Shown one piece after another: positions 37,081 through 64,000 of a stretch of DNA of 64,000 nucleotides. The notes under the pieces were generated by a model that made no database searches, was not told the origin of the DNA, and was given only the letters and a program-made list of their open reading frames with translations. Source of the stretch: an uncultured virus (IMG/VR IMGVR_UViG_3300042519_001519). Lineage: Duplodnaviria; Heunggongvirae; Uroviricota; Caudoviricetes. The translations under genes were made by a program, and so were the position numbers. The stretch spans positions 1 through 64,000 of IMG/VR virus record IMGVR_UViG_3300042519_001519; one strand, 5' to 3'. Positions within the stretch are counted from its first letter, which is position 1. Every line of letters starts with the position of its first letter.

Positions 37081-37971
37081 ATGTCTAAAAAACATGTTGT
37101 AGTATCCTTAAGTGGAGGAATGGACTCAAGTACATTATTACTTAGATGTCTAAAAGAGTATGATAGTGTAACAGCTATCTCATTTGACTATGGTCAAAAA
37201 CACAGAGTAGAGCTAGATAGAGCTCAATCATTGGTGAATTATATAAATTCAAACGATTCTATTGAAGCTAATGGAAGTAATTACATATTTTACCCAAAAG
37301 TAAACTATCGCCAAATCAAACTAGACGGATTAGTTGACTTACTAGATTCAGCTTTAGTAACTGGAGGTGAAGATGTACCAGAAGGTCACTATGCAGAAGA
37401 TAATATGAAAGCAACAGTTGTTCCTAACAGAAACAAAATATTTGCTTCTATTACTCAAGCAATAGCTTTATCAGTTGCTCAAAGAACAGGTGAATTTTGT
37501 AGTATTGCTTTAGGTATTCACGCTGGAGATCATGCAATTTATCCTGATTGTAGACAAGAATTCCGTGATGCTGATGATTATGCATTTAGAATAGGAAATT
37601 GGGGAGCTGAAAATGTAGGGTATTTTACACCTTACTTGAAAGGAGATAAATTTACTATCTTACAAGACGGAGAAGTATTATGTGAAGAATTAGGATTAAA
37701 TTTTGATGAAGTTTATAAAAGAACTAACACATCTTATAAACCAATTTGGATACCTGGACCTGAAAGTAACTCAAGAGTAGAAGAAACACTTAGAACTAAA
37801 TTTGGAGAATGGTACTCAGATTATAAATCAGCTTCATCAGTTGAAAGAGTAGAAGCATTTATTAAATTAGGAAGAAAAGATCCAGCTCCTTATGCAGACG
37901 AAACAGGACCAGTAACATGGGAACATGTGGTAGCAGAGGTAACAAAAGTATTAGATAACCATAACAATTAA
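37081..37971 (+). CDS. queC: 7-cyano-7-deazaguanine synthase
   Basis: SLSGGMDS, FDYGQKH, TVVPNRN, HAGDHAIYPDCR. Confidence 0.95.
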   Translation: MSKKHVVVSLSGGMDSSTLLLRCLKEYDSVTAISFDYGQKHRVELDRAQSLVNYINSNDSIEANGSNYIFYPKVNYRQIKLDGLVDLLDSALVTGGEDVPEGHYAEDNMKATVVPNRNKIFASITQAIALSVAQRTGEFCSIALGIHAGDHAIYPDCRQEFRDADDYAFRIGNWGAENVGYFTPYLKGDKFTILQDGEVLCEELGLNFDEVYKRTNTSYKPIWIPGPESNSRVEETLRTKFGEWYSDYKSASSVERVEAFIKLGRKDPAPYADETGPVTWEHVVAEVTKVLDNHNN

Positions 37972-40241: not shown

Positions 40242-40325
40242 GGAAGGCGGCCGAATGGACGAGGAGCTTGTCTTGAAAACAAGTAGCGGGTAACACCGTT
40301 GTGGGTTCGATTCCCATGTCTTCCT
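40242..40325 (+). tRNA. tRNA-Ser(TGA)
   Basis: Cloverleaf; CTTGT-CTTGAAA-ACAAG; long variable arm. Confidence 0.9.
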
Positions 40326-40331
40326 CAATAT

Positions 40332-40403
40332 TGGCTTATAGTGTAACGGTTAGCACAAAACACTTTGACTGTTTTAGTCTAGGTTCGAATCCTAGTAAGC
40401 CAA
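40332..40403 (+). tRNA. tRNA-Gln(TTG)
   Basis: AAACA-CTTTGAC-TGTTT; canonical T-arm. Confidence 0.92.
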
Positions 40404-40412
40404 CAATAATTT

Positions 40413-40488
40413 CGGGTAGTAGAGGAGTCTGGTTTATCTCGCTGGCCTTGGACGCTAGAGCACGCAGGTTCGAATCCTGCTTACCCGA
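40413..40488 (+). tRNA. tRNA-Pro(TGG)
   Basis: CTGGC-CTTGGAC-GCTAG. Confidence 0.92.
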
Positions 40489-40494
40489 CGAATT

Positions 40495-40566
40495 GCCCCT
40501 ATAACTTAACGGCTAAAGTACTATACTTTTAATATAGGAATCCAAGTTCGATTCTTGGTGGGGGTA
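40495..40566 (+). tRNA. tRNA-Lys(TTT)
   Basis: CTATA-CTTTTAA-TATAG. Confidence 0.9.
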
Positions 40567-40571
40567 CAAAA

Positions 40572-40667
40572 GCTACATACACAACCTTACAATCTCTCAG
40601 TTAAAAGCTGTTGTAAGATCAAGTAATAAGCCAATATGCTTGTTAGTTGTGATCAGGTGTAGCACCA
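40572..40667 (+). ncRNA. Non-tRNA structured RNA with an acceptor-like stem and ACCA end
   Basis: GCTACAT/GTGTAGC+ACCA; CACAAC/GTTGTG; CTTACAA/TTGTAAG; TAATAAGC/GCTTGTTA. Confidence 0.65.
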
Positions 40668-40738
40668 GCCTCGTTGGCGTAATGGGAGCGTATTTCTTTT
40701 ACATGGAAATGGCAGTAGTTCGATTCTACTACGAGGTA
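40668..40738 (+). tRNA. tRNA-Val(TAC)
   Basis: TTTCT-TTTACAT-GGAAA; full cloverleaf. Confidence 0.85.
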
Positions 40739-40837
40739 CAAAATTCTGGGTAGCAAGTAAAATACCGGCAAGTATTTTCAAGTCTATATGGAGTCTATTA
40801 TGAGTTATTAATTTGCCGATGAAAGCTTGTTATAGTT

Positions 40838-40909
40838 TCGTTCTTGGTAGATTGGTGACTACGCTGCCCGCGGAGGGTGGAGAAGCAGGTTCGATTCCTG
40901 TAGAATGAT
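40838..40909 (+). tRNA. Atypical tRNA, anticodon CGG (Pro?), with G at position 33
   Basis: TCGTTCT/AGAATGA; GTAG/CTAC; CTGCC-CGCGGAG-GGTGG; canonical T-arm. Confidence 0.6.
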
Positions 40910-40915
40910 CAAATT

Positions 40916-40996
40916 GGGATGCTTCAGTCACTGGTGTGATAAGCGGTCTGTAAAATCGTTCTGTAAGAAGGTGTGGTTCGATTCCACAGTGTCCCA
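40916..40996 (+). tRNA. tRNA-Tyr(GTA)
   Basis: GCGGT-CTGTAAA-ATCGT; variable arm. Confidence 0.85.
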
Positions 40997-41058
40997 CAAA
41001 TATGGAATAACATCGCTCCCGTAATGCCATGGCTTGTATACGAGTGACGGGAGACAAT

Positions 41059-41131
41059 GGACCTTTGGTATAGCTGGTGCGTACGCTAGTCTGAAGAACT
41101 AGAGGAGTAGGTTCGATTCCTACAGGGTCCA
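41059..41131 (+). tRNA. tRNA-Phe(GAA)
   Basis: CTAGT-CTGAAGA-ACTAG. Confidence 0.92.
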
Positions 41132-41133
41132 CG

Positions 41134-41208
41134 AAGTAGAGAGGTATGGGTTCGAGTCCCATCCGGGCCGTTAGCGGCGCGGTAGTATAACGGTAGTAAC
41201 GCTTTCTT
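41134..41208 (+). ncRNA. Circularly permuted tRNA-like element (YrlA/Y-RNA-like topology)
   Basis: T-arm first, then acceptor stem closed by a TTAG loop, then D-arm; termini pair AAG-T-AGAG/CTTT-CTT. Confidence 0.7.
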
Positions 41209-41280
41209 GGGTTTGTCGTATAACGGCTATTACGGATGACTGTTAATCATCTTATGAAGGTTCGATTCCTTCCAGGCCCG
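41209..41280 (+). tRNA. tRNA-Asn(GTT)
   Basis: GATGA-CTGTTAA-TCATC. Confidence 0.92.
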
Positions 41281-41286
41281 CAAAAT

Positions 41287-41360
41287 AGGTAATTAGCTCA
41301 ATTGGTTAGAGCACTCGCCTGATACGTGAGAGGTTATAGGTTCGATTCCTATATTACCTA
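41287..41360 (+). tRNA. tRNA-Ile(GAT)
   Basis: CTCGC-CTGATAC-GTGAG. Confidence 0.92.
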
Positions 41361-41365
41361 CAAAG

Positions 41366-41448
41366 GGAAAGTAAATCAACTAGGAGTTGAGACCGCTTGC
41401 TAAGCGTATCGTGCCTTCGGGCATGGGGTTCGATACCTCTGCTTTCCT
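41366..41448 (+). tRNA. tRNA-Ser(GCT)
   Basis: TTGCTAA loop; GTGCC-TTCG-GGCAT variable arm; some mismatches. Confidence 0.8.
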
Positions 41449-41579
41449 CAAAAAAACCTCCTCACCGTCCTCACAACGCATCTAAGGAATGCAGGAGAAG
41501 GAAGTACGAACGGGGCCCCGTGGTAAGACACATTAAAATCAGATAGTACAGCGATAGGGTAAGAGGTTCCCTATCAACT

Positions 41580-41648
41580 ACCGACTTGATCTAGGATCGA
41601 GAATATCTCATAAGTATTCTCAGACAAGAGCGTAACTTGTAGTCGGTA
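41580..41648 (+). tRNA. Atypical tRNA(CAT) with a minimal D-arm and non-canonical T-loop
   Basis: ACCGACT/AGTCGGT; GAATAT-CTCATAA-GTATTC; ACAAG-AGCGTAA-CTTGT. Confidence 0.6.
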
Positions 41649-41765
41649 CTAAATTATATGGGTAGGTAGGAAGTTAAGAAACGTTTCTCAAAAAACGACT
41701 TAATGAGGTAAAGCGTTAGAGTAGTAAAATTGAGTAAGCGTTATTAAAGTAGTATAATTTTATAT

Positions 41766-41837
41766 GGTGTTCGAAGCTTTTTAGTGAAGCGCAAGACTGT
41801 GAATCTTGAGAAGACGGGGCGGTACCGTCCTTACACC
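41766..41837 (+). tRNA. tRNA-His(GTG), divergent
   Basis: CAAGA-CTGTGAA-TCTTG; G-1/C73; T-loop GGCGGTA and two acceptor mismatches. Confidence 0.75.
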
Positions 41838-41843
41838 CAACAT

Positions 41844-41923
41844 GCCTCTGTGGTGAAATAGGTAAACACACCAGGCTTAAAACTTGGCGCTCAGGCTTGC
41901 TGGTTCGACTCCAGTCAGGGGTA
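41844..41923 (+). tRNA. tRNA-Leu(TAA)
   Basis: CCAGG-CTTAAAA-CTTGG; variable arm. Confidence 0.9.
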
Positions 41924-42012
41924 CAAAAAAATCGCTGATGTCCTCTTTAATTGTTCGACATTGAAGATGTGTAATGATATAAACATCGTAGGTTAAGCGA
42001 TATCCTACAACT

Positions 42013-42084
42013 GGTCTTATAGTTTAATTGGAAAAACTTATCGCTACGAACGATAGAACGTAGGTTCGACTCCTACTAAGACCT
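42013..42084 (+). tRNA. tRNA-Arg(ACG)
   Basis: TATCG-CTACGAA-CGATA. Confidence 0.92.
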
Positions 42085-42244
42085 CAAAATATAATTACAA
42101 AGCGTAGGTAAGAAGACGTGGAGAGACGTTGCGCAAGGGTACACACTAAGGATAAGTATTTATACTCAACTCTCTAAGGGTGTGTGAAGCACTAAGAAAT
42201 TAGATCCCAGATTCCTGATAAAACTTACTAATTATATTTTAACC

Positions 42245-42316
42245 GCCCTATTAGTTAAACGGATATAACGAATCTCTTCTAAAGATTAATTCTAGGTTCG
42301 ATTCCTGGATGGGGTA
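42245..42316 (+). tRNA. tRNA-Arg(TCT)
   Basis: AATCT-CTTCTAA-AGATT. Confidence 0.92.
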
Positions 42317-42322
42317 CAACAA

Positions 42323-42393
42323 GCGGGTCACAGACAAGGTGTCGGTACGGTCTCCAAAACTGCTACGGGTAGGTTCGATTCCTACGGTCTGCG
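42323..42393 (+). tRNA. tRNA-Trp(CCA), short D-arm
   Basis: CGGT-CTCCAAA-ACTG; canonical T-arm. Confidence 0.8.
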
Positions 42394-42460
42394 CAAAATT
42401 ATTAATTATGAAAAAGAAATTCGATGCTCATTAGGTTTATTAACCTAAAATTTGAGCAAG

Positions 42461-42643
42461 ATGAGAATCAAAAACTATACTCAGAAAGAGTATAAAAAAG
42501 AAAAAAGAAAACAATCCAAAGATGGTGGAATGTGGTTTGAAGACTATTGGAGTAAATGTAAATCCGGAATATGGGCCTTCAAGTACAGAGAGTACCGTAC
42601 TTGGAAGTACAACAGAAAAACACAGTATAAACCTTTAAATTAA
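42461..42643 (+). CDS. Small basic hypothetical protein
   Basis: Lys/Arg/Trp-rich; ends RTWKYNRKTQYK. Confidence 0.5.
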   Translation: MRIKNYTQKEYKKEKRKQSKDGGMWFEDYWSKCKSGIWAFKYREYRTWKYNRKTQYKPLN

Positions 42644-42648
42644 AAATC

Positions 42649-43155
42649 ATGAGTAAGTATCAAAAAGCACTAGTAGTGGATGCAAGCTTTACAGCAAGAT
42701 CAGTTATAAGTACCGAACGAGCGTTCGTGATTTTTTATAAGGGTAATGCTGAAGTAGTAGCAGAGCATCCAGAAACATTTAGTTTAATTAATCCTGAACT
42801 AACCATTTACAAACCTTCTATTATTAGAGTAGCTAAGTATGTAAAACAAAACATTCAAAAAGTACCTCTAACAAGAGAGAATATTTACCGAAGAGATAAT
42901 TATGAATGTGTTTATTGTGGTAGTTCAAATCAAAGAATATTAACACTTGACCATGTTATCCCTCAATCAAAAGGAGGAAAAGATGCTTGGGATAATTTAG
43001 TAACAGCTTGTAGACCATGTAATCATGAGAAAGCAGATTTAACATTAGAGGAATATGGTAAGGAAATTCCAGAACCAAAAAGACCTCATTATTTAATGTT
43101 AATGAGAAGTATGACATACATACCTAAAGAATGGGAAACATTTTTATTCTTTTAA
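42649..43155 (+). CDS. HNH endonuclease inside the tRNA array
   Basis: RDNYECVYCG...LTLDHVIPQSKGG...NLVTACRPCNHEK. Confidence 0.93.
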   Translation: MSKYQKALVVDASFTARSVISTERAFVIFYKGNAEVVAEHPETFSLINPELTIYKPSIIRVAKYVKQNIQKVPLTRENIYRRDNYECVYCGSSNQRILTLDHVIPQSKGGKDAWDNLVTACRPCNHEKADLTLEEYGKEIPEPKRPHYLMLMRSMTYIPKEWETFLFF

Positions 43156-43158
43156 ATA

Positions 43159-43314
43159 ATGGAAGAGTGGAAGCCAGGATATTATGATAAATGGGAGAAT
43201 TTTATTCCTTATGATAAAAAATGGTATTGTAATGAAAATAAAAGAATCCATCAATCAGAAAAGGAAAAAAATAATTGTAAGTATTGCAATAAAGGTTTGG
43301 AAAACCAGAAATAG
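43159..43314 (+). CDS. 51-aa possible Zn-binding peptide (not in the ORF track)
   Basis: C-x6-H-x8-C-x2-C spacing. Confidence 0.4.
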   Translation: MEEWKPGYYDKWENFIPYDKKWYCNENKRIHQSEKEKNNCKYCNKGLENQK

Positions 43315-43327
43315 TTTCATATATTAA
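43297..43327 (+). promoter_or_regulatory. Internal promoter for the second half of the tRNA array
   Basis: TTG-N20-TATATTAA. Confidence 0.7.
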
Positions 43328-43424
43328 GGTATAAGAAAGTAAAATATATCACCTACTACAAAACGGCGCGCGAAACAATAGAATCCCGACTTGTACTGTC
43401 TGGAAGGTCAGGCTAGGTGAAAAT

Positions 43425-43495
43425 GGGCAGTTGGCCGATTGGTTAGGCACAGGATTGCAAACTCTGTTAGGTTGGTTCGATTCCAACACTGCCCT
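43425..43495 (+). tRNA. tRNA-Cys(GCA)
   Basis: TTGCAAA loop; U73. Confidence 0.88.
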
Positions 43496-43590
43496 CATTT
43501 AAGGTTCGACCCTCTACCAAATGTGTTACACCCACAAATGGACAACGAGAGGGAGCTACCGATTGATAAGTGGCCGCACATGCGGCAAAT

Positions 43591-43664
43591 GCCCGAGTGG
43601 TGGAATTGGCAGACACGGCGGCCTTAGAAGTCGTAAACTGAGAGTTCGAGTCTCTCCTTGGGTA
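43591..43664 (+). tRNA. tRNA-Leu(TAG) lacking the long variable arm
   Basis: GCGGC-CTTAGAA-GTCGT; Leu-type D-loop; 5-nt variable region. Confidence 0.85.
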
Positions 43665-43668
43665 CAAA

Positions 43669-43735
43669 TTAGAGTTAGCTTATAGTAAAGCAGCAGGGGC
43701 TAACCTGCAGAACGGATACGAAAACCGGCTCTAAT
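43669..43735 (+). ncRNA. Degenerate tRNA-like element (6-nt loop GGCTAA, aberrant T-arm)
   Basis: TTAGAGT/GCTCTAA; GCTT/AAGC; GCAGG/CCTGC; CGG/CCG. Confidence 0.55.
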
Positions 43736-43740
43736 TATCT

Positions 43741-43814
43741 GCTTCTGACGCACAAATGGTGGTGCACCGGATTTGTAACCCAGAATAGAGTCGGTTCGAT
43801 CCCGTCCAGAAGCT
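43741..43814 (+). tRNA. tRNA-Thr(TGT), mismatched anticodon stem
   Basis: GCTTCTG/CAGAAGC; TTTGTAA loop. Confidence 0.7.
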
Positions 43815-43819
43815 CAACT

Positions 43820-43891
43820 GCGACTATCGTATAATGGTCATTACTTCAGACTTCCAATCTGAAGATGAGAGTTCGATTCTCTCTAGTCGCT
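43820..43891 (+). tRNA. tRNA-Gly(TCC)
   Basis: TCAGA-CTTCCAA-TCTGA. Confidence 0.93.
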
Positions 43892-43942
43892 CAGGGGTGT
43901 GTAGGAGCCCAAGAGTATGTGATGAGCATACGCCTACAATTT

Positions 43943-44014
43943 GCTGCCATCGTCTAACGGCTAGGACCTATGGTTTTCATCCATAAAATCGGAGTTCGAT
44001 TCTCCGTGGCAGTA
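43943..44014 (+). tRNA. tRNA-Glu(TTC)
   Basis: TATGG-TTTTCAT-CCATA. Confidence 0.92.
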
Positions 44015-44019
44015 CAAAA

Positions 44020-44091
44020 GGGGCTATAGTGAAATTGGCATCACGATAGATTTGCATTCTGTTATTCCGGGTTCGAATCCCGGTAGCTCCA
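44020..44091 (+). tRNA. tRNA-Ala(TGC)
   Basis: TTTGCAT loop; G3-U70 pair. Confidence 0.93.
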
Positions 44092-44096
44092 CAAAA

Positions 44097-44168
44097 GGTC
44101 TATTCGTTCAACGGCTAGGATACTACCCTGTCACGGTAGGGATGAGAGTTCGATTCTCTCATAGACCG
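44097..44168 (+). tRNA. tRNA-Asp(GTC)
   Basis: CTACC-CTGTCAC-GGTAG; G73. Confidence 0.93.
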
Positions 44169-44177
44169 CTTATAAAC

Positions 44178-44247
44178 TGCGTTAAAGTGTAAAGGTTGCA
44201 TCCCGGTCTCATAAGCCGGGGGGGTGGTTCGAGTCCACGCTACGCTA
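44178..44247 (+). tRNA. tRNA(CAT), initiator-like
   Basis: CCGGT-CTCATAA-GCCGG; 1:72 mismatch. Confidence 0.7.
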
Positions 44248-44253
44248 CAAATT

Positions 44254-44327
44254 GTCCTTTTAGCTCAGATGGTGAGAGCAGCTCGCTCATAACGAGAAGG
44301 TCACAGGTTCGAGCCCTGTATAGGACA
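44254..44327 (+). tRNA. tRNA(CAT), elongator Met or Ile2
   Basis: CTCG-CTCATAA-CGAG; canonical D and T arms. Confidence 0.85.
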
Positions 44328-54793: not shown

Positions 54794-56464
54794 ATGAATA
54801 ATAAATTTACATTCCACGTATTAGGACTTCCTCATACAATCACTAATAGAGAATTTGTAGCATGTGCTTATACACAAAAGGCTTGGAAATTCTGTAAGAT
54901 GATGGGGGAAAGAGGGCATACTATCTACCATTACGGACATGAGGAGAGCGACGCTCCATATGCGGAAAACGTAACAGTTATCACCAATAAGGTATGGAAA
55001 AAAGTATACGGTACTCATGACTATAAATCTAAATTCTTTAAATATAATGTAGAGGATGAAGCCTATCAAACCTTCTATAAAAATGCTATAAAGGAAATAG
55101 GAAAGAGAAAACAGAAGAATGATTTCATTTTACCATTCTGGGGGTCAGGAGTAAGGCCGGTATGTGACGGACATCCAGATTTAATAACTGTTGAACCAGG
55201 AATAGGCTATGCAGGAGGGCATTGGGCAAATTGGAAAGTATTTGAATCTTATGCAATCTACCATGCATACTACGGACTGATGGGAGTGAATTATTGCGAT
55301 ATGAAAAACTACGAAGTAGTAATTCCAAACTACTTCGACCTCTCTGATTTTGAATTTAGCGATAAAAAAGAAGATTACTTTCTTTATTTAGGAAGAGTCT
55401 TTGACGGAAAAGGAGTTAATATAGCAATCCAGGTTACTGAACACTTAGGGTATAAATTAAAGATAGCAGGACAGATTGACGCCGATGGACCTTATAAGGA
55501 TGGAAAGTTTCCTCCTCATGTAGAGTTTGTAGGGTATGCTGGAACCGAAAAGAGAAAAGAACTGATGAAGAGTGCAAAAGGATGCTTCCTACCTTCACAA
55601 TATGTTGAACCATTTGGAGGAGTTCAAATAGAAAATTTACTATCAGGAACACCAACAATTACCTCAGACTGGGGAGCCTTTGCAGAGAATAATATAAACG
55701 GAGTAACTGGTTACAGATGTAGAACGTTTGATGATTACTTGCAGGCAACTATAAAAATTAACAACGGAGAAATAGATTACAAGACTTGTAGAGAGTATGG
55801 AGAAAAGTTTTCATTAGAGAATGTAGCTCCTATGTACGAAAAATATTTTAAAGATATTTTAAATGTTTATGAAGGAGAAGGATGGTATCAAACAGATATT
55901 CCTAGAGGGAAGACTGATGCTTTCAATTATACAAATATGGAGGAAGAAGAAAAGCCATTTGCAGATAATCTAGCTAAGTGGATTAAAAAGTATTACAATC
56001 CTAAAAAAGTAGTCGATGTAGGTTGCGGGAGTGGGACTTATGTAAGGTCCTTAAGAAAAGAAAAAATTGATGCTATTGGGTACGATATTAACGATGTAGT
56101 AGAAGATCAGGACTTTCTCTTTAAAAAGAGTATCTTTGACCTAAACCATAAATCAGAACTAATTATCTGCCTGGAAGTAGCCGAGCACATAGAGACAGAA
56201 CACAACGACAGTATTGTTGAAAAGTTATACGAAAACCTTAAACCAGGAGGTACTTTAATCTTCACAGCAGCACATCCAGGACAGCAAGGAATAGGTCATA
56301 TAAACTGTCAAACAAAAGACTACTGGTGGGAGAAGTTTGCAGAAAAAGGATTAGTCCGAGATTTAAAAGCAGAGAAGGATTGGGAAGATTATTTTGATCA
56401 AGGAAGAGAGTACATGGGATGGTTCCGTATGAACAAGCTCTTTTTAACTAGAGTAGGATCATAA
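54794..56464 (+). CDS. GT-B (GT4-like) glycosyltransferase fused to a class I SAM methyltransferase
   Basis: YLGRV..GKG, EPFGGVQIE; VVDVGCGSG, CLEVAEHI, LKPGG. Confidence 0.88.
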   Translation: MNNKFTFHVLGLPHTITNREFVACAYTQKAWKFCKMMGERGHTIYHYGHEESDAPYAENVTVITNKVWKKVYGTHDYKSKFFKYNVEDEAYQTFYKNAIKEIGKRKQKNDFILPFWGSGVRPVCDGHPDLITVEPGIGYAGGHWANWKVFESYAIYHAYYGLMGVNYCDMKNYEVVIPNYFDLSDFEFSDKKEDYFLYLGRVFDGKGVNIAIQVTEHLGYKLKIAGQIDADGPYKDGKFPPHVEFVGYAGTEKRKELMKSAKGCFLPSQYVEPFGGVQIENLLSGTPTITSDWGAFAENNINGVTGYRCRTFDDYLQATIKINNGEIDYKTCREYGEKFSLENVAPMYEKYFKDILNVYEGEGWYQTDIPRGKTDAFNYTNMEEEEKPFADNLAKWIKKYYNPKKVVDVGCGSGTYVRSLRKEKIDAIGYDINDVVEDQDFLFKKSIFDLNHKSELIICLEVAEHIETEHNDSIVEKLYENLKPGGTLIFTAAHPGQQGIGHINCQTKDYWWEKFAEKGLVRDLKAEKDWEDYFDQGREYMGWFRMNKLFLTRVGS

Positions 56465-56499
56465 AAAGATATTTCTTATATTTATTAACATATAACAAC

Positions 56500-56529
56500 A
56501 GTGTCGTAGCACCACTTTAAAAACACACC
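56500..56529 (+). promoter_or_regulatory. preQ1-I riboswitch-like aptamer heading the queD/queE operon
   Basis: AGTG-TCGTAGCAC-CACT-TTAAAAACAC between the promoter (56454-56484) and ATG 56532. Confidence 0.7.
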
Positions 56530-56531
56530 TT

Positions 56532-56855
56532 ATGGCAACATATTTTAAGAAGCCTTCCATAGAGAAAGCAGAACAATCGGTTATAATGGATAGAGTTCTA
56601 GAACAAAAAAAGAAAGAACTCTCACCAGGAGATTTCAAAACCTATGCAAACTTTACTACTCAGCAAGAACTGCTTGAAGAAGCAACTAGAAGAAATCTAT
56701 TAGCAATTCCAGATCCAAAACTACATCAACAAATTTCATTTATCAAATCCGGTATAAGAATACTTGGATACTTTCTATTACCTTTTAATCTTTTATTAGG
56801 AGCTGGAGTATTAATTTTAAGTGAAATAGTTGGAATTTACGAAGAATTAGTTTAA
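56532..56855 (+). CDS. Hypothetical protein with a C-terminal hydrophobic hairpin
   Basis: HQQISFIKSGIRILGY...EIVGIYEELV. Confidence 0.6.
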   Translation: MATYFKKPSIEKAEQSVIMDRVLEQKKKELSPGDFKTYANFTTQQELLEEATRRNLLAIPDPKLHQQISFIKSGIRILGYFLLPFNLLLGAGVLILSEIVGIYEELV

Positions 56856-56864
56856 ATTAGAGTT

Positions 56865-57014
56865 ATGAGAGAGGTGAACGATCACGTAAAAGAAGCTTTA
56901 GGTATAAAGCCTAAGAAGAGATTTAAGAAAGACTACACAAAAGCATTTGTATGGATAGGGCTTGCTCTAATCACAATTGCTATATGGACAACAATTTACA
57001 ATTTAATATTTTAA
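56865..57014 (+). CDS. 49-aa membrane peptide (not in the ORF track)
   Basis: Basic N-terminus plus C-terminal TM; fills the gap before queD. Confidence 0.5.
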   Translation: MREVNDHVKEALGIKPKKRFKKDYTKAFVWIGLALITIAIWTTIYNLIF

Positions 57015-57017
57015 CAA

Positions 57018-57479
57018 ATGAAATTTCAAGCAACAAAACTATTTGACGGCTACTCAGCATGCTTTCGACAATGGAAAGCAGAGGGTACACATTGCAGATT
57101 TCTTCACGGCTATGCCGTATCATTCCGAGTATGGTTCGAAGGAGAACTAGACGAAAGAAACTGGGTATGGGACTTCGGAGGAATGAAAAGAGCTAAAGGA
57201 AACATCGAAGGATATTCTCCAAAAGCATTTTTCGATTACCTATTAGATCATACAACTATTGTAGCAGAGGATGATCCTTATATGGATACATTTAAACAAA
57301 TGCATAACGACGGCGTTATACAGTTAAGAATACTTCCTGCTACAGGATGTGAACGATTTGCAGAATACTTACATTTAAAAATCAATACATTTTTACTTGA
57401 AGAAACAAACAGTAGAGTAAGAGCTACTAAGGTAGAAGTTTACGAACATGAAAGGAACTCAGCATCTTATGGTGAGTAA
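57018..57479 (+). CDS. queD: 6-carboxy-5,6,7,8-tetrahydropterin synthase
   Basis: CRFLHGY, WVWDFG, LDH, CE, VYEH..NSA. Confidence 0.9.
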   Translation: MKFQATKLFDGYSACFRQWKAEGTHCRFLHGYAVSFRVWFEGELDERNWVWDFGGMKRAKGNIEGYSPKAFFDYLLDHTTIVAEDDPYMDTFKQMHNDGVIQLRILPATGCERFAEYLHLKINTFLLEETNSRVRATKVEVYEHERNSASYGE

Positions 57480-57792: not shown

Positions 57793-58566
57793 ATGAAAAG
57801 AATAGAAGATTATAACAAAACACTTCCCATTGTAGAGCTTTATACAGCAGTACAATCAGAAGGAAGTAGAGCAGGTTATCCAACCGTAGTAATCAGAACA
57901 ACAGGCTGTACTCACAGATGTTGGTTTGGTGATGGTGGATGGTGCGATTCTTGGTACACAAGTATACATCCTGAAAAAGGACATATCAGTTTTCAAGATA
58001 TTATTAACATGTATGATGCCAATCCCCACATCACAGAGATGATGCTAACAGGAGGATCACCAACAATGCATCCAGCATTAGTAAACGAATTAACACATTT
58101 TGCACATGAAAGAAATATTTTCATTACGATTGAGACCGAAGGAAGTCATTTTCTTGAGACAGATTACCCAATTAATCTATTATCAATCTCCCCTAAGTTC
58201 AGTAATTCTGTCCCTAAGGTTGGCATTGCAACACCTCAAGGAGACATTACAGATGAGAAAATGATTAAACAGCATAACAAGCTAAGATTAAACTACGATG
58301 CAATATCCAAATCAATCTCTTATCATTCAGACTACCATTTAAAACCGGTATGGGATGGAGAGGATCAAGAAGCATTAAAAGAGATTATGAATTGTATTAA
58401 AATGCTAGACATACCAGAAGATAAAGTATGGTTCATGCCAGCAGGAGATTCAAGAGAAGCTTTATTCAAATCATATCCAAAAATGTTTGATTGGGTTAGA
58501 GATAACGGTTATAGATTGACCTGGAGACCTCACATCATTGCATTTGAAGACCAAAGAGAAGTGTAA
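57793..58566 (+). CDS. queE: 7-carboxy-7-deazaguanine synthase (radical SAM)
   Basis: VQSEG..AG.P, RTTGCTHRC...WCDS, LTGGSP, IETEG, ISPK. Confidence 0.92.
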   Translation: MKRIEDYNKTLPIVELYTAVQSEGSRAGYPTVVIRTTGCTHRCWFGDGGWCDSWYTSIHPEKGHISFQDIINMYDANPHITEMMLTGGSPTMHPALVNELTHFAHERNIFITIETEGSHFLETDYPINLLSISPKFSNSVPKVGIATPQGDITDEKMIKQHNKLRLNYDAISKSISYHSDYHLKPVWDGEDQEALKEIMNCIKMLDIPEDKVWFMPAGDSREALFKSYPKMFDWVRDNGYRLTWRPHIIAFEDQREV

Positions 58567-59653: not shown

Positions 59654-60049
59654 ATGGCACTAAAAATAGGAAATAAAGTTTATTTAAGCTGGGATGATAT
59701 CAACATCTTAGTAGAAGATTTAGCAAATACAATAGCAGCATCAGGAGCAGAGATTAAATCGATAACAGGTATTCAAAGAGGAGGATTAATACCAGCAGTA
59801 ATGATCTCCCACAAGCTCCACATACCTTACGTTAGTAGAATAAATAAAGATACTTTGGTAGTAGATGATATTTGTGATACAGGAGAGACGTTAAAAAATA
59901 CTATTGGAATGTATACTGCAACGCTTCATTACAAACCAACAGCAATCTTTACTCCAGACTTCTACTCAAAAGAAGTAGGAACAGAGTGGATTGTATACCC
60001 TTGGGAAAGAAATGACTCAGAAACTATTCAAGATTATTTGAAAAAATAG
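59654..60049 (+). CDS. Purine phosphoribosyltransferase (Gpt-like)
   Basis: GIQRGGLIPA, LVVDDICDTGET, WIVYPWE. Confidence 0.9.
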   Translation: MALKIGNKVYLSWDDINILVEDLANTIAASGAEIKSITGIQRGGLIPAVMISHKLHIPYVSRINKDTLVVDDICDTGETLKNTIGMYTATLHYKPTAIFTPDFYSKEVGTEWIVYPWERNDSETIQDYLKK

Positions 60050-60087
60050 TTGCAGGATAAAGTAAAAAATGTTATATTAAATAAAAC

Positions 60088-60114
60088 GGAGTCGTAGAAC
60101 CTCCATAAAAACAA
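60088..60114 (+). promoter_or_regulatory. preQ1-I riboswitch-like aptamer upstream of folE
   Basis: GGAG-TCGTAGAAC-CTCC-ATAAAAACAA between the promoter (60050-60080) and ATG 60121. Confidence 0.75.
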
Positions 60115-60120
60115 TCTTAT

Positions 60121-60828
60121 ATGTCAAATAAAAAATTTATCGACGGTACAGAATTAGTACAAGCCGGATTCGCTAATGGTATTTCCTCTCAATTGGCAAA
60201 AAAACAACTAACAGAAGGTCCAGAAGCAAGATTAACTGAAGTAGAAAAGCAACACATCATTGAAGATGCAGCAGAAGCTTTCGGACAATTCCTTTCAGCT
60301 TTAGGATGTGATTGGCAGAATGATCCAAATTCATCTGATACTCCTAAAAGAGTTGCAAAAGCATACGTAAACGATTTATGGGCAGGTCGATTTGAACCAC
60401 TAACAAGAATTACAGCATTCCCTTCTGATGGTTATGATGGAATAGTACAAGAGAGTAATATACCAGTTACCTCAATGTGCTCACATCACCACCAAACAAT
60501 TTCAGGAGAGGTAAGTATAGCTTATGTTCCTTCAGCAGATGGAAAGGTAGTTGGGCTTTCAAAATTAAATCGAATTGTAGAGCAGTTTGCTAGACGTGGA
60601 GCTATTCAAGAGCAGTTAACAGTTGCAATTCATAATGCAGTAGATAAAATCTGTGAAGGTAATCTAGGAGTAGCAGTAGCAATTTCAGCAACACATAACT
60701 GTGTATCGTGTAGAGGGATTAAACATCAGGGAGCTTCAATGCAAACAGCAAAGTTAACAGGGTGTTTCTTAGATGAAGCATCAGCAAGAGCAGAATTCTA
60801 TACAAATATTAAACTTGGAAAAAAATAA
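60121..60828 (+). CDS. folE: GTP cyclohydrolase I
   Basis: DTPKRVAK, SMCSHHH, VGLSKLNR, QEQLT, HNCVSCRG. Confidence 0.96.
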   Translation: MSNKKFIDGTELVQAGFANGISSQLAKKQLTEGPEARLTEVEKQHIIEDAAEAFGQFLSALGCDWQNDPNSSDTPKRVAKAYVNDLWAGRFEPLTRITAFPSDGYDGIVQESNIPVTSMCSHHHQTISGEVSIAYVPSADGKVVGLSKLNRIVEQFARRGAIQEQLTVAIHNAVDKICEGNLGVAVAISATHNCVSCRGIKHQGASMQTAKLTGCFLDEASARAEFYTNIKLGKK

Positions 60829-61606: not shown

Positions 61607-61809
61607 TGCAAGCAGCACTAGACCATTTAGAAAAGCATAAAGTGTTTATTGATACTTTAGGTATAGATATGATTCCTTTATCAGAGGCATATAAAGCAGT
61701 TGAGAAGTCTATCGATAGTCAACTGGCAGAAGTTATGGAAACATTACAAGCACAGTTAGGAGGATTAGTAGAAGATTTACAAGATATAACACCAGAAGAT
61801 AATGATTAA
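61606..61809 (+). CDS. Small acidic hypothetical protein
   Basis: TAATG overlap. Confidence 0.55.
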   Translation: MQAALDHLEKHKVFIDTLGIDMIPLSEAYKAVEKSIDSQLAEVMETLQAQLGGLVEDLQDITPEDND

Positions 61810-62596
61810 GATAGCACACGAATCACCGAAGAGTATCTTTAAAGAAGTACAGAAGTATACTGACTATGATTATGCATTAGTGCATTTATTTGAAGAAGAT
61901 CCAGAATACTTAAAACAGTTTCAAGATGCTAAAGAAGCAGGTAGAGAAATTATTTTAGATAATTCTATCTTTGAATTAGAAGAAGCTTTTGATGCAGAGA
62001 AGTTTGCAGGCTGGGTATTAGAATTAAAGCCAGATTGGTATATAGTTCCGGATGCTTTAGAGGATGCAAAGAAGACTGTACAGCAAATGACAGAATGGAA
62101 TAACAAGTATAAAAATCTTCCAGGAAAGAAAATAGGAGTTGTTCAAGGAAAGACTTACAGTCAAATTAAGACTTGTTATGAGTATATGGATAAGATTGCA
62201 AATGTAGATATGATTGCAATTTCATTCGACTACTCGTACTATACAAATACTATTTCACATCCTAACAAGTATGTTAGTTGGATGCTAGGAAGGGTTAAGC
62301 TACTAGGAGATCTATTGAGAGACGGTGTTATAAACGAAGAGAAGAAGCATCACCTATTGGGATGTGGATTACCTCAAGAGTTTTCTTTCTACTCAGACTA
62401 TAAATGGATCTATTCTTTAGATACTTCTAATCCAGTTGTACATGGTATAAAAGGAGTTGAGTATAGAGCAGATGGATTATGGTCAAAAGAGTCTCAAAAG
62501 TTATTTGAATTAATCAACTACGTACCGGAAGATACGAATATGATTCTTCAGAACATTCATAAATTCAGATGGTTTGCAAATGGACGCAAAGTATAA
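61802..62596 (+). CDS. dpdA: DpdA/TGT-like deazaguanine transglycosylase-fold protein
   Basis: ILDNSIFE, IVPD, GVVQG, HHLLG, SLDTS: TGT barrel motifs; located within the que cluster. Confidence 0.75.
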   Translation: MIKIAHESPKSIFKEVQKYTDYDYALVHLFEEDPEYLKQFQDAKEAGREIILDNSIFELEEAFDAEKFAGWVLELKPDWYIVPDALEDAKKTVQQMTEWNNKYKNLPGKKIGVVQGKTYSQIKTCYEYMDKIANVDMIAISFDYSYYTNTISHPNKYVSWMLGRVKLLGDLLRDGVINEEKKHHLLGCGLPQEFSFYSDYKWIYSLDTSNPVVHGIKGVEYRADGLWSKESQKLFELINYVPEDTNMILQNIHKFRWFANGRKV

Positions 62597-62762
62597 GATA
62601 GGGGAAATGGTTATTATAAATCTCGATAATGAGATTATAGATGCCGAAGTATTTGGAATAGTAGACAGTAATTCAGGAGGAAAACCTTCGTACAGTTTAA
62701 GAGTGAAAGGAAATTTTATCTTTATGAATGAGGATAGAATAATAAGTATATCACATGAATAG
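62580..62762 (+). CDS. Small beta-barrel-like hypothetical protein
   Basis: KYKIGEMV...YSLRV. Confidence 0.45.
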   Translation: MDAKYKIGEMVIINLDNEIIDAEVFGIVDSNSGGKPSYSLRVKGNFIFMNEDRIISISHE

Positions 62763-63282
62763 ACCTTGGATAGCATTCTTTAGTCAAACAGGATCAGAGA
62801 TCGTAGAAGTATCAAAGCTACTAGGAAGATGGCCTGACCTTATTATTACAAACGAAAGACCAGAACATCTTAGAAAGATTCATCCTGCTTTAGAAAATAA
62901 GCACTTAATCTTCGTAGACAATAAGCCTTCAGAAGAAGAACTATTTCCTCTATTGGCTCAGTATGATAATGCTTTAGTAACTCTTCATGGATGGTTAAGG
63001 ATTATGCCACCAGGTATTTGTAATCGATTTGAAATCTATAATGGACATCCAGGACTTATAACTCAGTATCCAGAACTAAAAGGAAAAGATCCTCAGCAAA
63101 AAGCTTTTGACTTAGGATTAGAACATTCTGGATGTGTTATTCATAGAGTAACAGAAGGAGTGGATGAAGGAGCTATACTTTTACAGAGACAAGTTTCTAT
63201 AAAAGGGTTGGAAATAGGAGAATTATTTCATATCTTACATAGTATATCAGTAAGTCTTTGGGTAGACTTTTTAAAAAATTAG
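62755..63282 (+). CDS. PurN-like formyltransferase (probable preQ1 formyltransferase, DpdN-like)
   Basis: FSQTGS, LHGWLRIM, YNGHPGL, GCVIHRVTEGVDEG; no other pur genes nearby, adjacent to dpdA and queF. Confidence 0.8.
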   Translation: MNRPWIAFFSQTGSEIVEVSKLLGRWPDLIITNERPEHLRKIHPALENKHLIFVDNKPSEEELFPLLAQYDNALVTLHGWLRIMPPGICNRFEIYNGHPGLITQYPELKGKDPQQKAFDLGLEHSGCVIHRVTEGVDEGAILLQRQVSIKGLEIGELFHILHSISVSLWVDFLKN

Positions 63283-63810: not shown

Positions 63811-64000
63811 ATGACACAAGAATTAAATCAAGCAGAAGTTGTAAAGATTGCAGGAAAGCATCTAGGACAAGTAGGTGGAGCAGGATATAGCGATACTTAC
63901 GATCCAAGTCTATTGGTAGAAATTCCACGTTACTTGAATAGAGAAGCGTATGGAATTGACGATAATAACCTTCCATTTGTTGGAGGAGATGTTTGGAATG
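63811..64000 (+). CDS. queF: preQ0 reductase, 5' part (runs off the window; not in the ORF track)
   Basis: HLGQ...[20 protein letters not shown]...[10 protein letters not shown] matches the N-terminus of bimodular QueF. Confidence 0.85.

Follow-up and report, generated by a model that had tools for sequence, protein, structure and literature searches.

Conserved hairpin in the leaders of phage 7-deazaguanine genes is a probable miniature relative of type II preQ1-I riboswitches

The window analysed here, a stretch of 64,000 nucleotides, is part of a 76-kb IMG/VR record of a Flavobacterium-type phage. It carries genes of a 7-deazaguanine pathway in addition to those next to the two leaders described below:

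37096..37743, + strand: queC match within a 297-aa open frame (PF06508, 117.9 bits)
61802..62596, + strand: DpdA, DNA guanine transglycosylase, 96% identical to the annotated DpdA of immuto_2-6A
62755..63282, + strand: DpdN-like formyltransferase (PF00551), 87% identical to the immuto formyltransferase
63811..64000, + strand: start of queF, which runs off the window (PF14489, 56.5 bits, G000 64438-64674, 310-aa frame)

The closely related phage immuto_2-6A, in which all G is described as replaced by 7-formylaminomethyl-7-deazaguanine (fdPreQ1), and whose formyltransferase was named DpdN (PMC10516641), likewise has FolE, QueD, QueE, QueC, QueF, DpdA and DpdN. Its folE region shares 86% DNA identity with that of the window. 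The window also contains 19 tRNA genes arrayed along the + strand at 40242-44327 (Rfam tRNA, 33-72 bits).

The leader of folE at 60088-60120 reads GGAG-UCGUAGAAC-CUCC-AUAAAAACAA-UCUUAU and is followed by the ATG at 60121. The features of this region are:

60050..60078, + strand: promoter-like pair, TTGCAG (60050-60055) and TATATT (60073-60078) separated by 17 nt
60088..60091, + strand: 5' strand of P1 in the folE copy, GGAG, pairs with 60101-60104
60092..60100, + strand: loop UCGUAGAAC, with U60092, G60097 and C60100 as candidate functional bases
60101..60104, + strand: 3' strand of P1, CUCC, judged by stem conservation and covariation
60105..60114, + strand: tail AUAAAAACAA, followed by UCUUAU at 60115-60120
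60105..60111, + strand: A-rich linker AUAAAAA, L3 equivalent, within the region upstream of the start codon
60112..60115, + strand: CAAU, candidate 3' strand of P2, in which C60112 could pair with G60097
60121..60828, + strand: folE, GTP cyclohydrolase I, 235 aa (PF01227, E 2.6e-44)

The GGAG/CUCC hairpin with an A-rich tail before the folE ATG, as given in the original prediction, was confirmed letter for letter, and the PF01227 match bears out the assignment of folE. The segment 59067-60049 between queE and folE holds a non-specific endonuclease gene (PF01223) and an ORF with a phosphoribosyltransferase domain, the stop of which is at 60049. Downstream of folE are a DUF4494 ORF and a gene for a MazG-like pyrophosphohydrolase.

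A promoter had also been predicted before folE. The TTGCAG/TATATT pair is present, and a TATATT-like box upstream of the motif is conserved among related phages, but a generic sigma-70 promoter scan did not include the pair in its output. We interpret the pair as a putative promoter because of the conservation of TATATT in relatives. In the folE copy, no more than 9 nt separate the end of this box from P1, so that transcription may begin right next to the stem.

A structural search identified a second copy of the motif, which had been omitted from the original prediction. It heads the genes orf107-orf49-queD-queE and has the sequence AGUG-UCGUAGCAC-CACU-UUAAAAACACA:

56477..56482, + strand: TATATT box, 17 nt before P1 of the second copy
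56500..56527, + strand: second motif copy, composed of AGUG (56500-56503), UCGUAGCAC (56504-56512), CACU (56513-56516), UUAAAAA (56517-56523) and CACA (56524-56527)
56532..56855, + strand: orf107, first gene after the second copy, encoding a small protein whose hydrophobic C-terminal part is conserved
56865..57014, + strand: orf49, with a sub-threshold match to DUF6747 only
57018..57479, + strand: queD, 6-pyruvoyl-tetrahydropterin synthase family (PF01242, E 5.4e-15)
57793..58566, + strand: queE, radical SAM (PF04055), in synteny with immuto QueE

The second copy ends 4 nt before the ATG of orf107 (56532). Two of the four pairs of its stem differ from those of the folE copy, and each is changed on both sides. 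The motif before folE of immuto_2-6A is identical to that of the window, whereas the second copy is absent from immuto because the homologue of orf107 there overlaps the preceding gene. In the window, a 556-aa ORF (54794-56464) ends just before the second copy. Its C-terminal part contains a GCGSG stretch resembling that of SAM-dependent methyltransferases, and immuto has different genes at this place. Proteins of the orf107 family have a variable N-terminus and a highly conserved hydrophobic C-terminal part of about 45 residues, ending in ..EELV. There are 607 homologues of orf107, and all of the 120 listed are annotated as 'hypothetical protein'; orf107 did not match any Pfam or PHROG family.

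The motif is specific to few places in the phage genome. A degenerate pattern of the motif with at most one mismatch matched the window twice, compared with 0.00 matches expected from 100 shuffles. A covariance model built from 71 unique motif instances (R1) scored 50.5 bits at 56497-56530 and 45.4 bits at the folE copy, and the next best place in the 76-kb record reached 15.4 bits. Because these are the only two strong R1 sites in the record, the motif is not a general promoter-associated feature. No R1 site precedes queC in the record. In the 160-kb genome of immuto_2-6A, R1 identified one site, before folE.

The hairpin precedes folE in many of the best 80 FolE-encoding IMG/VR loci (70-94% protein identity), with the stems GGAG/CUCC, GGUG/CACC, UGAG/CUCA, UGUG/CACA and AGUG/CACU. 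A scan of IMG/VR with the degenerate pattern gave at least 140 matching stretches. Among the 140 matches listed, 122 satisfied strict criteria, which required a TATATT-like box, three or more stem pairs and a C after the A-run. Four more (L132, L155, L171 and L194) were added by eye, which brings the accepted instances to about 126. L132, L171 and L194 reach 41-50 bits with R1, and the motif of L155 is identical to that of L132. The other 14 listed are chance matches without a TATATT-like box; 12 of them also have no nearby start codon, and L157 and L168 have one nearby but poorly paired stems. In about 126 of the 140 listed matches, the motif lies directly before folE, folE2, queD, queE or an ORF leading the operon. 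In all of these accepted instances it is on the coding strand, with the tail facing the ATG. The genes directly downstream of the motif, counted among the approximately 126 accepted of the 140 matches listed, are:

FolE: 59-60
small membrane ORF, hydrophobic C-terminal part conserved: 50-51
197-aa lipoprotein-like ORF: 5
QueD: 3
QueE: 3
FolE2: 1 (PF02649, 91.6 bits)
locus too short to read: 3

FolE2 and FolE are GTP cyclohydrolases without sequence relationship, which ties the motif to the pathway and not to a single gene or mRNA. In the FolE2 case, a phage fragment (L182 / G429:C1:8520-8936), the outer stem pair is an A-G mismatch. Among the listed matches, the small membrane ORF, which is of the orf107 type, follows the queD-type motif directly more often than any other gene, and orf107 is therefore probably part of a 7-deazaguanine regulon. 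The 197-aa ORF, which belongs to another group of phages (L100:1230-1820, also in L120, L123, L145 and L197), has a signal-peptide and lipoprotein-like N-terminus and did not match any family over the curated cut-off.

A narrow exact pattern had 10 matches in 185,579 bacterial species genomes. Two of these are real, and both belong to the same 5.9-kb phage-like contig binned in a Verrucomicrobiales MAG. With R1, 151 genomes each of Bacteroidota and Clostridia, in which 46 first-look candidates per genome were scored, yielded no site at E <= 0.1. Among the genomes searched, the motif thus appears to be phage-specific.

The alignment of 77 distinct sequences shows that the 4-bp helix P1 is paired in 99.3% of cells, compared with 80.0% in shuffles, none of which reached the observed value (0/500). 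Slid registers of P1 are 28.6-65.6% paired in the same sequences. Pair 1 is AU in 46, GC in 15 and UA in 13 sequences, and pair 3 is UA in 58 and AU in 19, while pairs 2 and 4 are G-C throughout, with the exception of L280, which has A-U at pair 2. The same result for P1 was obtained from another alignment. The covariation upstream of folE that the original prediction had proposed to look for is therefore seen at two P1 pairs, and it fits an RNA helix and a DNA palindrome alike, because the other two pairs do not vary and no G-U pair occurs.

The loop and the tail are more constrained than the stem. Loop positions U1, A5, G6 and C9 are invariant in all 71 unique instances, and A8 is conserved in 70. 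Between P1 and the tail C, 55/71 instances have a 7-nt linker (range 5-9); it ends in an A-run in 71/71, where an ending of at least three A was a criterion of the motif finder. In the 71 unique instances, 5-13 nt separate the tail C from the start codon, and the distance from the end of P1 to that codon is 13-20 nt. This conservation of loop and tail in related phages is the opposite of what had been named beforehand as evidence against a riboswitch-like element. The predicted hairpin energy is only -2.4 to -3.9 kcal/mol (-3.9 for the folE copy), and the folding energy is no better than that of shuffles in either copy (z -0.56 for the folE copy and 0.04 for the second), so that the support for the hairpin is comparative, not thermodynamic. 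A conserved, covarying but marginal helix is what would be expected of a ligand-stabilised pseudoknot, although this is an argument rather than a test. The comparisons support the description of the element as RNA-like, with a conserved structure and compensatory changes in the stem.

A second helix, P2, would turn the hairpin into a pseudoknot, and the alignments give it marginal support. A G-C pair between loop G6 and the tail C is possible in 71/71 instances, which is uninformative as covariation because both bases are invariant. One sequence, L061, has the G6-C pair changed to A-U. A second candidate pair, between loop position 4 and tail position +3, is possible in 51/71 instances, and 185 of 5000 shuffles score as high. 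The G and C variants of loop position 4 change compatibly with tail position +3, and all five unique A variants are uncompensated. P2 is perhaps reduced to one G-C pair.

The layout of the motif resembles that of preQ1-I aptamers. In the solved structures described in PMC10622847, the ligand is held by an L1 uridine, an L2 cytidine and L3 adenines, and the equivalent positions of the phage motif are invariant. U60092 would be the counterpart of the L1 uridine and C60100 that of the L2 specificity cytidine, with G60097 as a candidate partner in P2. The position of C9 is also that of the invariant C in our alignment of aptamers from Bacilli. The closest resemblance is to type II, known from the Thermoanaerobacter tengcongensis and Bacillus subtilis aptamers, which is reported to discriminate weakly against preQ0 (PMC10622847). 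As in type II, U is the first and C the last base of the hairpin loop, the 3' strand of P1 follows directly, and an A-run precedes a C able to pair with a loop G. Both elements lie upstream of 7-deazaguanine synthesis genes and overlap the translation start region. However, P1 of the phage motif has 4 bp instead of the 5 bp found in 32 bona fide sequences, and its loop has 9 nt, compared with 10 in two Clostridia sequences and at least 11 in the Bacilli set. The phage tail is ..AAAACA(A/C) rather than ..AAAACUA or ..CAAGG, and P2 does not contain a Shine-Dalgarno sequence. Unlike type II, the motif was found only on phage contigs, and it precedes folE, folE2, queD and queE genes serving the modification of DNA rather than tRNA.

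These differences are reflected in the model searches. At the motif, the Rfam preQ1 model RF00522 remained below its gathering score (39 bits) and gave no match at E <= 10 in 301 or 50 bases. The search of the phage genome with RF00522 returned four other weak places (10.2-13.6 bits), none of them the motif. The Rfam check suggested with the original prediction thus failed at every threshold tried, and the element is not a member of RF00522 as modelled. The reading of the leader as preQ1-I-like is upheld in part, by the arrangement of U, C and A-run, by P1 and by the pathway genes, but not by RF00522, and P2 is marginal.

RF00522 exceeded its cut-off in 24/121 Bacilli, 0/151 Bacteroidota and 1/151 Clostridia genomes. 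A set of 30 Bacilli aptamers has invariant GGUUC, CCC and AAAACUA. The model built from this set (R2) touched 4 of 29 phage motif sites, with 7.7-9.8 bits and E of 1.7 or more. In the reverse direction, R1 did not find any bona fide aptamer at E < 0.1 in the 30 Bacilli loci. Nine of its 26 weak matches there fall exactly on true aptamers and in register, a faint sign that the architecture may be shared. The closest look-alikes are two Clostridia sequences, L324 (31.2 bits) and L325 (30.4 bits), which are sub-threshold for RF00522. In both, P1 comprises 5 bp, the 10-nt loop is UCGCAG..AC, and the tail consists of an A-run and CAAGG, followed by a Shine-Dalgarno sequence. The phage loop differs from that of L325 by one substitution and one deleted base. 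Because these look-alikes reach only 30-31 bits, the RF00522 model is also weak on the subtype that they represent. R1 did not score L324 or L325 at all.

The smallest naturally occurring aptamer according to PMC10622847 is the type III preQ1-I aptamer of E. coli yhhQ, the wild type of which is a 36-mer. It is similarly a very small translational H-type pseudoknot with a pocket formed by L2 C, L3 A and L1 U, but its loop is rich in pyrimidines, its linker is long and variable, and a GGA Shine-Dalgarno sequence touches the ligand (PMC10622847). In contrast, the phage motif has a purine-rich loop, a 7-nt linker and no Shine-Dalgarno sequence, and it is approximately 28 nt long.

Taken together, the sequence comparisons make it probable that the leaders of folE and of orf107-orf49-queD-queE contain a metabolite-sensing RNA that is a miniaturised relative of preQ1-I type II. 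The ligand is suggested by the genes that accompany the motif. Among 45 larger contigs, QueF is encoded by 34 of the 39 that bear the motif, and the five without QueF are at most 32% complete. QueF exceeded the cut-off in one of the six FolE-bearing contigs without the motif (Fisher p 0.0011, uncorrected for relatedness). Among records at least 90% complete, QueF is present in 5/5 with the motif and 0/2 without it. The association may mark one phage lineage. Since the motif tracks queF, the gene for the preQ1-forming step, preQ1 or a derivative is favoured as the ligand. Cellulophaga phage phiST, which has 7-deazaguanine DNA, does not contain the motif; its best R1 score is 20.9 bits, at a place far from the que genes. 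A possible preQ1 riboswitch in Streptococcus phage Dp-1 was considered as a precedent, and this idea was dropped because no Rfam preQ1 family matched at the que cluster of this phage at E <= 0.1.

Based on these comparisons, a mechanism can be proposed, in which the pseudoknot, the ligand, the direction of regulation and the transcription start are what we infer. The weak 4-bp P1 would close the 9-nt loop, into which a 7-deazaguanine base may bind, most likely preQ1, although preQ0 and formyl-preQ1 are also possible. The ligand would pair with the invariant C60100 and be held in addition by U60092 and a tail adenine. The A-run 60105-60111 would dock in the groove of P1, and the pair G60097-C60112 would complete a minimal H-type pseudoknot. 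The folded aptamer would end 5-13 nt before the start codon, hide the A-rich region and lower initiation. Such an effect is plausible because flavobacterial ribosomes skip Shine-Dalgarno sites and mRNA structure tunes initiation; Bacteroidetes mRNAs are described as being without Shine-Dalgarno sequences, with initiation tuned by mRNA structure (PMC6847099). No GGAG-like Shine-Dalgarno sequence occurs between the tail and the ATG, and the terminator scan did not identify a terminator on the + strand near the motif. A Shine-Dalgarno platform is not expected in a Bacteroidota host. The original proposal that the tail coincides with a Shine-Dalgarno-free initiation region agrees with this position of the tail and fits translational control. 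Ligand-induced repression of translation is the likeliest mode of action, by analogy with known preQ1-I aptamers. In this way, the first steps of the pathway supplying DpdA would be under feedback control by the phage.

An unlikely alternative is that the element is a translational operator, with its loop read by a phage or host RNA-binding protein that represses or times translation. Translational repressors of phage T4 act in a comparable manner. A short hairpin with a sequence-conserved loop beside a start codon has the look of an operator, neither RF00522 nor the Bacilli model identifies the element as preQ1-I, and P2 lacks clear covariation. However, the invariant positions coincide with the U, C and A of preQ1-I that contact the ligand, and the loop is nearly the same as that of the two Clostridia aptamer-like sequences. 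Furthermore, the occurrence of the motif before two non-homologous GTP cyclohydrolases points to a pathway rather than to one mRNA, and the motif tracks queF.

It is much less probable that the motif is a DNA operator, an inverted repeat bound by a transcription factor that controls two pathway promoters. The repeat is located 9-17 nt downstream of the conserved TATATT in the two copies of the window, and the stem changes preserve complementarity without G-U pairs, as in a DNA palindrome. Nevertheless, the half-sites comprise only 4 bp, and the most conserved parts, the 9-nt loop and the one-sided A-rich tail, are asymmetric and, in all of the accepted instances, on the coding strand. The spacing to the TATATT-like box (last upstream regex match) varies from 0 to 20 nt, whereas the distance to the start codon is steady at 13-20 nt. 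Equally improbable is a constitutive 5' element that stabilises the mRNA or tunes initiation without sensing, which would suit a weak hairpin at the extreme 5' end of a presumed transcript before highly used genes, but would need structure rather than an invariant 9-nt loop and tail. Such an element would also not be confined, within 76 kb, to a pair of leaders serving a single pathway, or be common to unrelated downstream genes.

Within the preferred reading of a metabolite-sensing relative of preQ1-I, a bolder variant is conceivable, which we regard as doubtful. The element could be the smallest natural aptamer, of about 28 nt, and constitute a class restricted to Bacteroidota phages, which would work without a Shine-Dalgarno sequence by folding the A-rich initiation region. 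Its ligand would be the product of the phage pathway itself or another 7-deazaguanine, for example formyl-preQ1 or preQ0, not plain preQ1, and it would act as a sensor for DNA hypermodification instead of tRNA queuosine.

Riboswitches are rare in phages according to PMC5473149. For phages, that survey (McCown 2017, PMC5473149) gives only c-di-GMP-I riboswitches of Clostridioides difficile prophages and glutamine riboswitches of cyanophages. Like the motif described here, these are phage-borne metabolite sensors before phage metabolic genes, but they belong to other classes with other ligands and are ordinary members of bacterial classes (PMC5473149). Unlike them, the phage motif was not found in the bacteria searched, and it serves DNA hypermodification. 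The original prediction named no earlier description of riboswitch control of a phage DNA-modification pathway, and we did not find a published account in the literature searched. The word riboswitch is absent from the two principal papers on 7-deazaguanines in phages, and in the immuto paper (PMC10516641) 'riboswitch' and 'regulat' occur 0 times each.

If ligand binding is confirmed, phages that replace all of their G would meter a costly GTP-consuming pathway by sensing the free base. The motif would then be a natural riboswitch in an organism whose ribosomes ignore Shine-Dalgarno sites, and the lower size limit known for natural aptamers would drop. In viral metagenomes, the motif can serve as a practical marker for QueF-type 7-deazaguanine pathways. 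It also points to the small membrane protein and the lipoprotein-like protein, both uncharacterised, as new members of the regulon.

Assembled metatranscriptome contigs of relatives with 90-95% identity, from four runs, reach both leader regions. One 540-nt contig, from the marine run X19, has its end precisely at 56490, a position that lies in the second copy after the TATATT box and before P1, and the summed word depth rises approximately 20-fold there. The contig end is a weak hint, and no conclusion about transcripts is drawn from these data, because contigs cannot show starts, strand or level. Another contig spans 58339-60179, across the folE leader.

The minimum-energy fold of the second copy contains a competing GUGU/GCAC hairpin (56501-56513) with a 4-nt loop, which uses the C variant of the motif loop and precludes P1. 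This hairpin could be an alternative ligand-free state, or it could be meaningless. The window's own queD-type copy is without the GAC(A/U)AU that is conserved directly 5' of P1 in many queD-type copies of other phages (L094, L096, L116, L137 and others), where its GAC could pair with a GUC spanning the end of P1 and the loop.
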